A stretch of DNA of 24,916 bases. Origin: Nitrospirota bacterium (lineage in GTDB: Bacteria > NPL-UPA2 > JAGMAN01). Of this stretch, positions 350 through 598 are shown in pieces. The notes under the pieces were generated by a model. That model made no database searches and had not been told where the DNA came from. It saw nothing but the letters and a program-made list of their open reading frames with translations. Position 1 is the stretch's first letter. The number at the start of each line of letters is the position of its first letter. The position numbers and the translations under genes are program-made. The stretch covers positions 1 through 24,916 of the forward strand of contig JAUWHM010000129.1 in NCBI GenBank assembly GCA_030605915.1, given 5' to 3'.

Positions 350-598
350 ATGCATGAATTTGGAATTGCCAGGACTATCTTAGACAGTGTTCTTAAGAAA
401 GCTGAAGGACACGGAGCAAAAAAGATTAGCCGGGTTGCTTTAAAGGTCGGGCAACTAAAAATGGTTACTCCTTCCTCTCTCCAGAATGCCTTTGATTTGG
501 TTTCATCCGGAACAGCGGCTGAAGGAGCAAAATTAGAGGTGGAGGAGGTAGCTGGAGACGAATTGTCTGTCCAGAGCATTGAAGTAGATACAGAATGA
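350..598 (+). CDS. hypA: HypA/HybF-like nickel metallochaperone, short form lacking the zinc-binding domain
   Basis: N-terminal MHE, KISRVALKVG, SLQNAFDLVSSGTAAEGAKLEVE and C-terminal GDELSVQSIEV all match HypA. No Cys; 82 aa. Confidence 0.85.
   Translation: MHEFGIARTILDSVLKKAEGHGAKKISRVALKVGQLKMVTPSSLQNAFDLVSSGTAAEGAKLEVEEVAGDELSVQSIEVDTE

Follow-up and report, generated by a model that had tools for sequence, protein, structure and literature searches.

The role of the zinc site of HypA is debated: it may be structural, regulatory or a surface on which partners dock. We take the solved structures of canonical HypA to be 3A43, 3A44, 5AUN and 5YXY from T. kodakarensis and 6G81 and 2KDX from H. 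pylori. According to a 2019 review, all HypAs have both sites, the zinc site included, and mutation of the zinc-site Cys residues of H. pylori HypA lowers hydrogenase activity (PMC7055735). In the H. pylori protein Asp40 has been proposed as a Ni ligand; T. kodakarensis uses His98, which completes the high-affinity Ni site of the HypA-HypB complex (PMC7055735). The other system of interest here is the NikR regulon. In delta-proteobacteria a reversed NikR signal, GTAACAC-N13-GTGTTAC, occurs alongside the usual GTGTTAC-N13/14-GTAACAC (PMC545781). A HypA-family gene as a NikR target beside nikR is not described in that paper, in which “hypA” has zero occurrences, and co-regulation of a nickel chaperone with nickel import is mentioned neither there nor in the chaperone review (PMC7055735). 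No account of a HypA devoid of Cys surfaced in our literature searches. As a possible precedent we considered the “HypA-like” proteins encoded in the isoprene operon of Acetobacterium and rejected them, as they keep both CxxC motifs.

We analyzed a stretch of 24,916 nucleotides (hereafter the window), which corresponds to positions 1-24916 of contig C166 in its own genome, G000. A short hypA gene on the plus strand (350..598) encodes 82 amino acids. Its translation bears out the reading in the original prediction: the protein has no Cys, begins with Met1-His2-Glu3 (the MHE motif) at its very start, and has Thr at residue 40. His is found at residues 2 and 21 only. The ATG is the first possible start after a stop codon, with no upstream in-frame start for this open reading frame, and a Shine-Dalgarno-like GGGAG (338..342, plus strand) can be read directly from the sequence 7 nt 5' of it. 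The Pfam HypA profile (PF01155) matches the protein with 66.6 bits (cut-off 28.9), the match being confined to positions 1-69 of the 112 in the profile. The NCBIfam equivalog model TIGR00100 gives 65.4 bits against a cut-off of 88.1; the equivalog cut-offs for hypA are missed because a third of the model has no match.

We aligned the protein with 65 full-length and 52 other short HypAs using MAFFT. It aligns with the full-length proteins from end to end, save for the block that holds both CxxC pairs. In the short protein the segment ...EVEEVA runs straight into GDELSVQSIEVD, the final strand in canonical HypAs; at this junction the full-length proteins have their two CxxC pairs and, with these, the structural zinc site. 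The earlier claim that the zinc-finger domain alone is missing, with both flanks intact, is thus confirmed by the alignment, which places the absent module between the last two strands. An AlphaFold2 model made with 24 short homologues in the input (pLDDT 92.1) predicts a complete Ni-binding domain (alpha1-beta1-alpha2-beta2-beta3), with a tight beta-hairpin at the former insertion point of the zinc module. When this model was compared with the PDB using Foldseek, the top ten matches were all HypA, the best being 3a43_B (TM 0.88, rmsd 1.9 A); 6g81 matched with a TM of 0.80. T. kodakarensis HypA was the sole solved relative returned by a sequence search. By its sequence, motif and predicted fold, the protein is a member of the HypA family without one of the family's defining features, the zinc site.

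A comparison with canonical HypA/HybF (PF01155) shows what has been kept and what has changed. The MHE motif, the alpha/beta Ni-binding domain and the C-terminal strand (...L.v.siEv..) are retained, and both forms are found in genomes with a [NiFe]-hydrogenase and HypC, HypD, HypE and HypF. In contrast to the canonical protein, the short one has lost the whole zinc module and every Cys, and no counterpart of His98 is apparent in it. Its gene lies beside nikR behind a NikR-box-like site rather than beside hypB or other hyp genes, and no GTPase HypB was found in its genome.

The original prediction also drew attention to the replacement of Asp40 by Thr. The residue is indeed Thr, and numbering up to residue 40 is the same as in H. 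pylori HypA, as there is no earlier indel. However, a ligand at Asp40 is not a feature of HypAs in general. In the 65 full-length representatives this column holds Val in 37, Glu in nine and Asp in four; the short forms have Thr in 22 of 53. Because Val predominates and Asp is found in so few of the full-length proteins, Thr40 carries little weight, and we rejected it as a meaningful ligand change. It marks instead this clade of short HypAs, with no conserved ligand lost.

Is such a protein peculiar to one assembly? A word-based search identified six clusters of relatives (81-85 amino acids; 60%-96% identity), all of them Cys-free and all with MHE, so the gene is no singleton. With an exhaustive phmmer search, 1968 matches (E ≤ 1e-3) were obtained among 1.84 billion cluster representatives at 50% identity, and about 50 of the best 150 of these matches are 77-92 amino acids long without any CxxC. 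The MHE motif is invariant across the alignments of the short relatives. In a FastTree phylogeny of 80 shared columns, the protein falls in a clade of 23 short representatives (support 0.887), and other short forms are interspersed among full-length HypAs; with so few columns, the tree is too weak to distinguish one origin of the short forms from many or to tell which form is ancestral. Three pairs within the short-HypA clade with dS of 0.3-0.4 have dN/dS of 0.094, 0.227 and 0.263 (Nei-Gojobori), indicating purifying selection; ratios against the window copy are about 0.1, in comparisons that are saturated. As judged from these relatives, the purifying selection and the predicted fold, the gene is genuine and conserved and its 82 residues form a one-domain HypA that lacks the zinc finger; the proposal of a functional zinc-free variant rather than a decayed gene is supported. 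The homologue searches confirm that this one-domain architecture is widespread at the sequence level. A widespread natural HypA that is under selection and has no zinc domain gives direct access to the question of what the zinc site does, and a natural test of the need for the domain that carries it.

Immediately upstream of the gene is the 3' part of nikR (2..277, plus strand), whose 5' end is lost at the contig end. It encodes the C-terminal Ni-binding domain (NikR_C, 118.5 bits) and passes the NCBIfam NikR model NF003381 (119.5 bits; cut-off 105). Two candidate NikR operators are found on the plus strand. The first, GTAACAC-N13-GTACTAC (300..326), lies 24 nt upstream of the hypA start codon, and the second, GTAACAC-N13-ATATTAC (1506..1532), lies ahead of the operon for a TonB-dependent receptor. 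Each matches the reversed signal at 12 of 14 positions. No other site in the whole window (24.9 kb) agrees with one of the two published consensus sequences at 11 or more of 14 positions, and a pattern built from the pair found no third match in the window with up to two mismatches. As in the delta-proteobacterial regulons (PMC545781), the half-sites and the N13 spacing are recognizable, the operators precede nickel-uptake genes and nikR adjoins its targets; the reversed orientation is the one described for D. psychrophila (PMC545781). They differ from the published regulons in their right half-sites, which match at only five of seven positions. No sigma-70-like promoter was recognized at the candidate operator, where the promoter and terminator scan yielded nothing usable. 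Of the 27 positions in each site, 21 are identical between the two, spacer bases (GAAT.TT.AGAAG) among them, which is more than recognition of the half-sites needs.

The association with nikR extends beyond the window. In all 11 close loci (a homologue with at least 60% identity and upstream sequence present), nikR lies directly upstream of the short hypA. These are the window, G002 (L004/L021), L002, L003, L005 and L035-L040, some of which are near-duplicates; as the related loci come from a metagenome scan with close-relative alignment, this sample of contexts leans towards close relatives. All nine loci scanned have a NikR-box-like site (11-13 of 14 positions) just ahead of nikR, and in L005 and L035 another site (GTAACACGAATAT...), which matches the first operator of the window, precedes hypA. 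The short hypA is therefore predicted to belong to a NikR-controlled unit of operator, hypA and a coupled downstream gene, next to nikR. Judging from the loci compared, the nikR-operon context with its candidate operators is specific to the short-HypA clade of the window. Such a unit suggests joint regulation of nickel import and a nickel chaperone in some bacteria, which would amount to a simple supply chain.

The coupled gene (595..1503, plus strand) encodes an SDR epimerase of the HldD/RfaD type, whose start overlaps the hypA stop (ATGA), and the two genes are probably co-translated. It passes the cut-off of TIGR02197 (285.4 bits; cut-off 274.6), the model for ADP-glyceromanno-heptose 6-epimerase. 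The gene sits between the two NikR-box-like sites; a heptose epimerase is odd in a nickel unit, and the enzyme may act on another substrate. The genes that follow on the same strand (1814..16570; Pfam and NCBIfam assignments) encode the TonB-dependent receptor, an ABC-2 pair, an importer with binding protein, FecCD permease and ATPase, a CobN-like subunit, a ChlI/D-VWA subunit and ExbB-ExbD-TonB.

Are these neighbors constant partners? In L037 and L038 the nikR-hypA module is followed by a flavoprotein gene, an SDR gene whose product is 72% identical to that of the window, a receptor gene and a gene for a CobN of 41% identity, so that the SDR copy again stands ahead of the receptor and the CobN-like gene. 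In L003, a beta-barrel protein gene and a CbiM/PDGLE/CbiQ/CbiO (NikMNQO-type ECF) transporter come after it. In L036 the module follows the dcw cluster and precedes genes for a barrel protein and an MFS protein and rnfC. We found CobN in G000 and G007 only, and G007 is without HypA; searches of G001-G003, all with a short HypA, did not find it, though the contig of G002 breaks inside hypA. From these gene orders, the constant partner of the short HypA is NikR, not the chelatase, and the downstream transport genes vary. The original prediction had proposed a nickel chaperone for the adjacent uptake/chelatase system. The general link to nickel uptake is supported by the shared putative NikR regulon, but the link to CobN in particular is weak, and we rejected a dedicated CobN chaperone as the main reading on the grounds of these gene orders and of the genomes in which CobN was found.

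We are interested in which nickel enzymes this protein might serve. Profile searches confirm that the window contains no hydrogenase or hypB gene, as had been stated, but this does not extend to the whole genome (1.26 Mb in 168 contigs, 81% complete). Contig C79 of G000 encodes a 408 amino acid protein with Complex1_49kDa and NiFeSe_Hases domains (L018:32-1258, minus strand). It has the Ni-binding Cys motifs RICGICSTSH and DPCYCCTER and a C-terminal extension of about 45 amino acids, and we assign it as the large subunit of an Mbh-type group-4 [NiFe]-hydrogenase. Although the commonest name among its close homologues is NADH-quinone oxidoreductase subunit D, others are named membrane-bound hydrogenase subunit alpha or nickel-dependent hydrogenase large subunit. 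This gene shows that the organism uses nickel, though the window itself has no hydrogenase gene. Additionally, a fragment of the Prismane family (CODH or hybrid-cluster protein) lies at the end of contig C163 of G000, and acetyl-CoA synthase is present in G001 and G003.

The other maturation genes are distributed as follows. G000, G001, G002 and G003 have one HypA match each, and no full-length HypA was found in any of them; the proposed check for a separate full-length hypA in G000 thus returned the short copy alone, in a genome 81% complete. HypD is present in G001, G002 and G003, and hypF-C-D-E clusters occur in the genus relatives G001 and G002 with no hypA ahead of hypF. In G000, hypD, and hence the hypFCDE cluster, was not found by a search that covered hypD and not hypC, hypE or hypF. 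G008 has a full-length hypA directly ahead of hypF, near a hydrogenase of the same type. G000-G003, G041 and G042 yielded neither a TIGR00073 HypB nor a CobW-family GTPase, and in G006 and G013 a full-length hypA adjoins hypB. We considered whether HypB is missing because the zinc domain is missing, and rejected this, as G042 and G008 have a full-length HypA and no recognizable GTPase HypB. On these profile searches, the lack of HypB is a trait of the lineages, whether their HypA is short or long. Across 15 relatives, the genomes with HypA, NikR, HypD and the hydrogenase are largely the same ones, and none of the four was found in the rest (the exceptions are G006, which has only hypA-hypB, and G000 and G008, in which HypD was not found); this co-occurrence is only a pattern, among genomes that are related and incomplete.

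Short HypAs in other contexts (G001, G003, L045) are 31%-54% identical to that of the window. The one in L045 likewise has MHE and the Ni domain and no zinc module, and comes from a lineage where HypB was not found, but it lies in a hydrogenase cluster, unlike the window clade with its nikR unit and operator-like sites. A second kind, in G001 (contig C49, L019:269-514, minus strand), is 81 amino acids long and 54% identical to that of the window, and sits after the genes for RACo, the activator of the corrinoid Fe-S protein, and peptide deformylase (def). This placement may point to a connection with the CODH/ACS pathway within the genus.

Taken together, the reading we favor, with somewhat better than even confidence, is that the gene encodes a NikR-controlled one-domain HypA that acts as a nickel chaperone for the Mbh-type hydrogenase and perhaps for CODH/ACS. 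When nickel is ample, Ni-bound NikR would repress both the hypA unit and the TonB-dependent uptake cluster; when it is scarce, chaperone and uptake system would be produced together. The chaperone might then capture cytoplasmic Ni(II) through its N-terminal amine, His2 and Glu3, and hand it on to nickel enzymes. The first candidate client is the group-4 [NiFe]-hydrogenase, whose HypF, HypC, HypD and HypE are encoded in the genus, where our searches returned neither a canonical HypA nor a GTPase HypB for it; CODH/ACS is a possible further one. Counting against the favored reading are the missing counterpart of His98, the effect of zinc-site Cys mutations in H. pylori, the failure to recognize a promoter at the operator and the state of G000, where hypD was not found and where stretches absent from the assembly, near the fragmented hydrogenase contigs, might harbor a canonical hypA. 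It is tempting to go one step further and suppose that the zinc-free HypA, made with the uptake system under NikR control, has replaced both canonical HypA and the GTPase HypB in this lineage, so that an 82-residue protein with nothing but MHE suffices to route imported nickel to the hydrogenase and possibly to CODH/ACS. This we regard as conceivable and rather doubtful. If true, the “universal” zinc domain of HypA and its partner HypB would be dispensable accessories. Short HypAs do occur in genomes with a [NiFe]-hydrogenase where no HypB was found.

The main rival of delivery to the hydrogenase is that the short HypA belongs to the NikR/uptake circuit itself, as a nickel buffer or hand-off protein and not as a factor for enzyme maturation, which broadens the idea of the original prediction. 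Its Ni(II) would come from the importer or a CobN-type (de)chelatase, and the protein would either hold it or present it to NikR, thereby setting the response of the sensor. The invariant linkage to nikR fits this view, as does the fact that no hydrogenase or hyp gene lies beside any close homologue, and the uptake systems that follow the module, NikMNQO-type in L003 and receptor-CobN in the window and L037, differ in kind. The genome G042 points in the same direction. It has a full-length hypA about 0.9 kb upstream of hypF, with a flavin-reductase-like gene between them, in a hydrogenase-HycI-hypFCDE cluster (L049, contig C1) whose hydrogenase is of the type seen in G008, besides two short copies linked to nikR (contigs C371 and C138); the short form there is not simply the HypA of the hydrogenase, which counts against our favored reading, though these may be true paralogues or the bin may be mixed. 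However, a CobN-type source of nickel is hard to reconcile with the distribution of CobN described above, no other HypA was found for the hydrogenase in the genus of the window, and more distant short HypAs do sit in hydrogenase clusters (L045). A protein with a single micromolar Ni site also makes a poor buffer. We therefore regard this reading as unlikely, though it deserves serious attention, and keep the hydrogenase chaperone as the preferred one.

In the sister lineage, a further gene invites another explanation. In nine sister loci the short hypA is directly followed, with overlapping or abutting reading frames, by a gene we call x120 (L003:981-1343, L036:8246-8608 and L037:2888-3250, for example, all outside the window). 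It encodes a 120 amino acid membrane protein with two predicted transmembrane helices and a CxxC-(25 aa)-CxxC tail. Might HypA be split there, with x120 supplying the zinc-ribbon function in trans? No Pfam family matches x120 above threshold, and HypA is the best or second-best match below it (E 0.06-0.08), over the zinc region; hhalign against full-length HypA gives a probability of 57% (E 1e-4), placing x120 residues 57-111 onto HypA residues 62-103. Zinc ribbons do, however, match one another weakly by chance, as several such matches in the profile searches show. The x120 family comprises 464 clusters, with 71%-88% identity among the 120 matches listed, those with a name being labelled Omnitrophota or unclassified bacterium. 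It is thus far more widespread and conserved than the nikR-linked HypA, which suggests an independent role. In the window the SDR gene overlaps the hypA stop in its place, and x120 was not found in G000-G014. For these reasons a split HypA is retained as a minor rival only, and a quite improbable one.

That the gene is a functionless remnant, be it a decaying copy, a private in-frame deletion allele or an assembly artefact, is the least credible explanation of all, and is excluded in practice by the conserved relatives, the low dN/dS and the confident fold: the missed equivalog cut-off and the importance of the zinc-site Cys residues in H. pylori (PMC7055735) would fit it, but many independent assemblies and dozens of clusters at 50% identity share its length and junction, MHE does not vary, and the gene has a putative ribosome-binding site, a candidate operator and probable translational coupling.

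Finally, the hyp cluster of G002 contains a gene that may be relevant to maturation in this genus. The order on contig C93 is a gene for a 244 amino acid protein (L047:2854-3588), hypF, hypC, hypD and hypE, with no hypA. The 244 amino acid protein has no Pfam match and no P-loop, and its gene overlaps the start of hypF. It holds the place that hypA occupies in relatives, and may be an undescribed maturation accessory.
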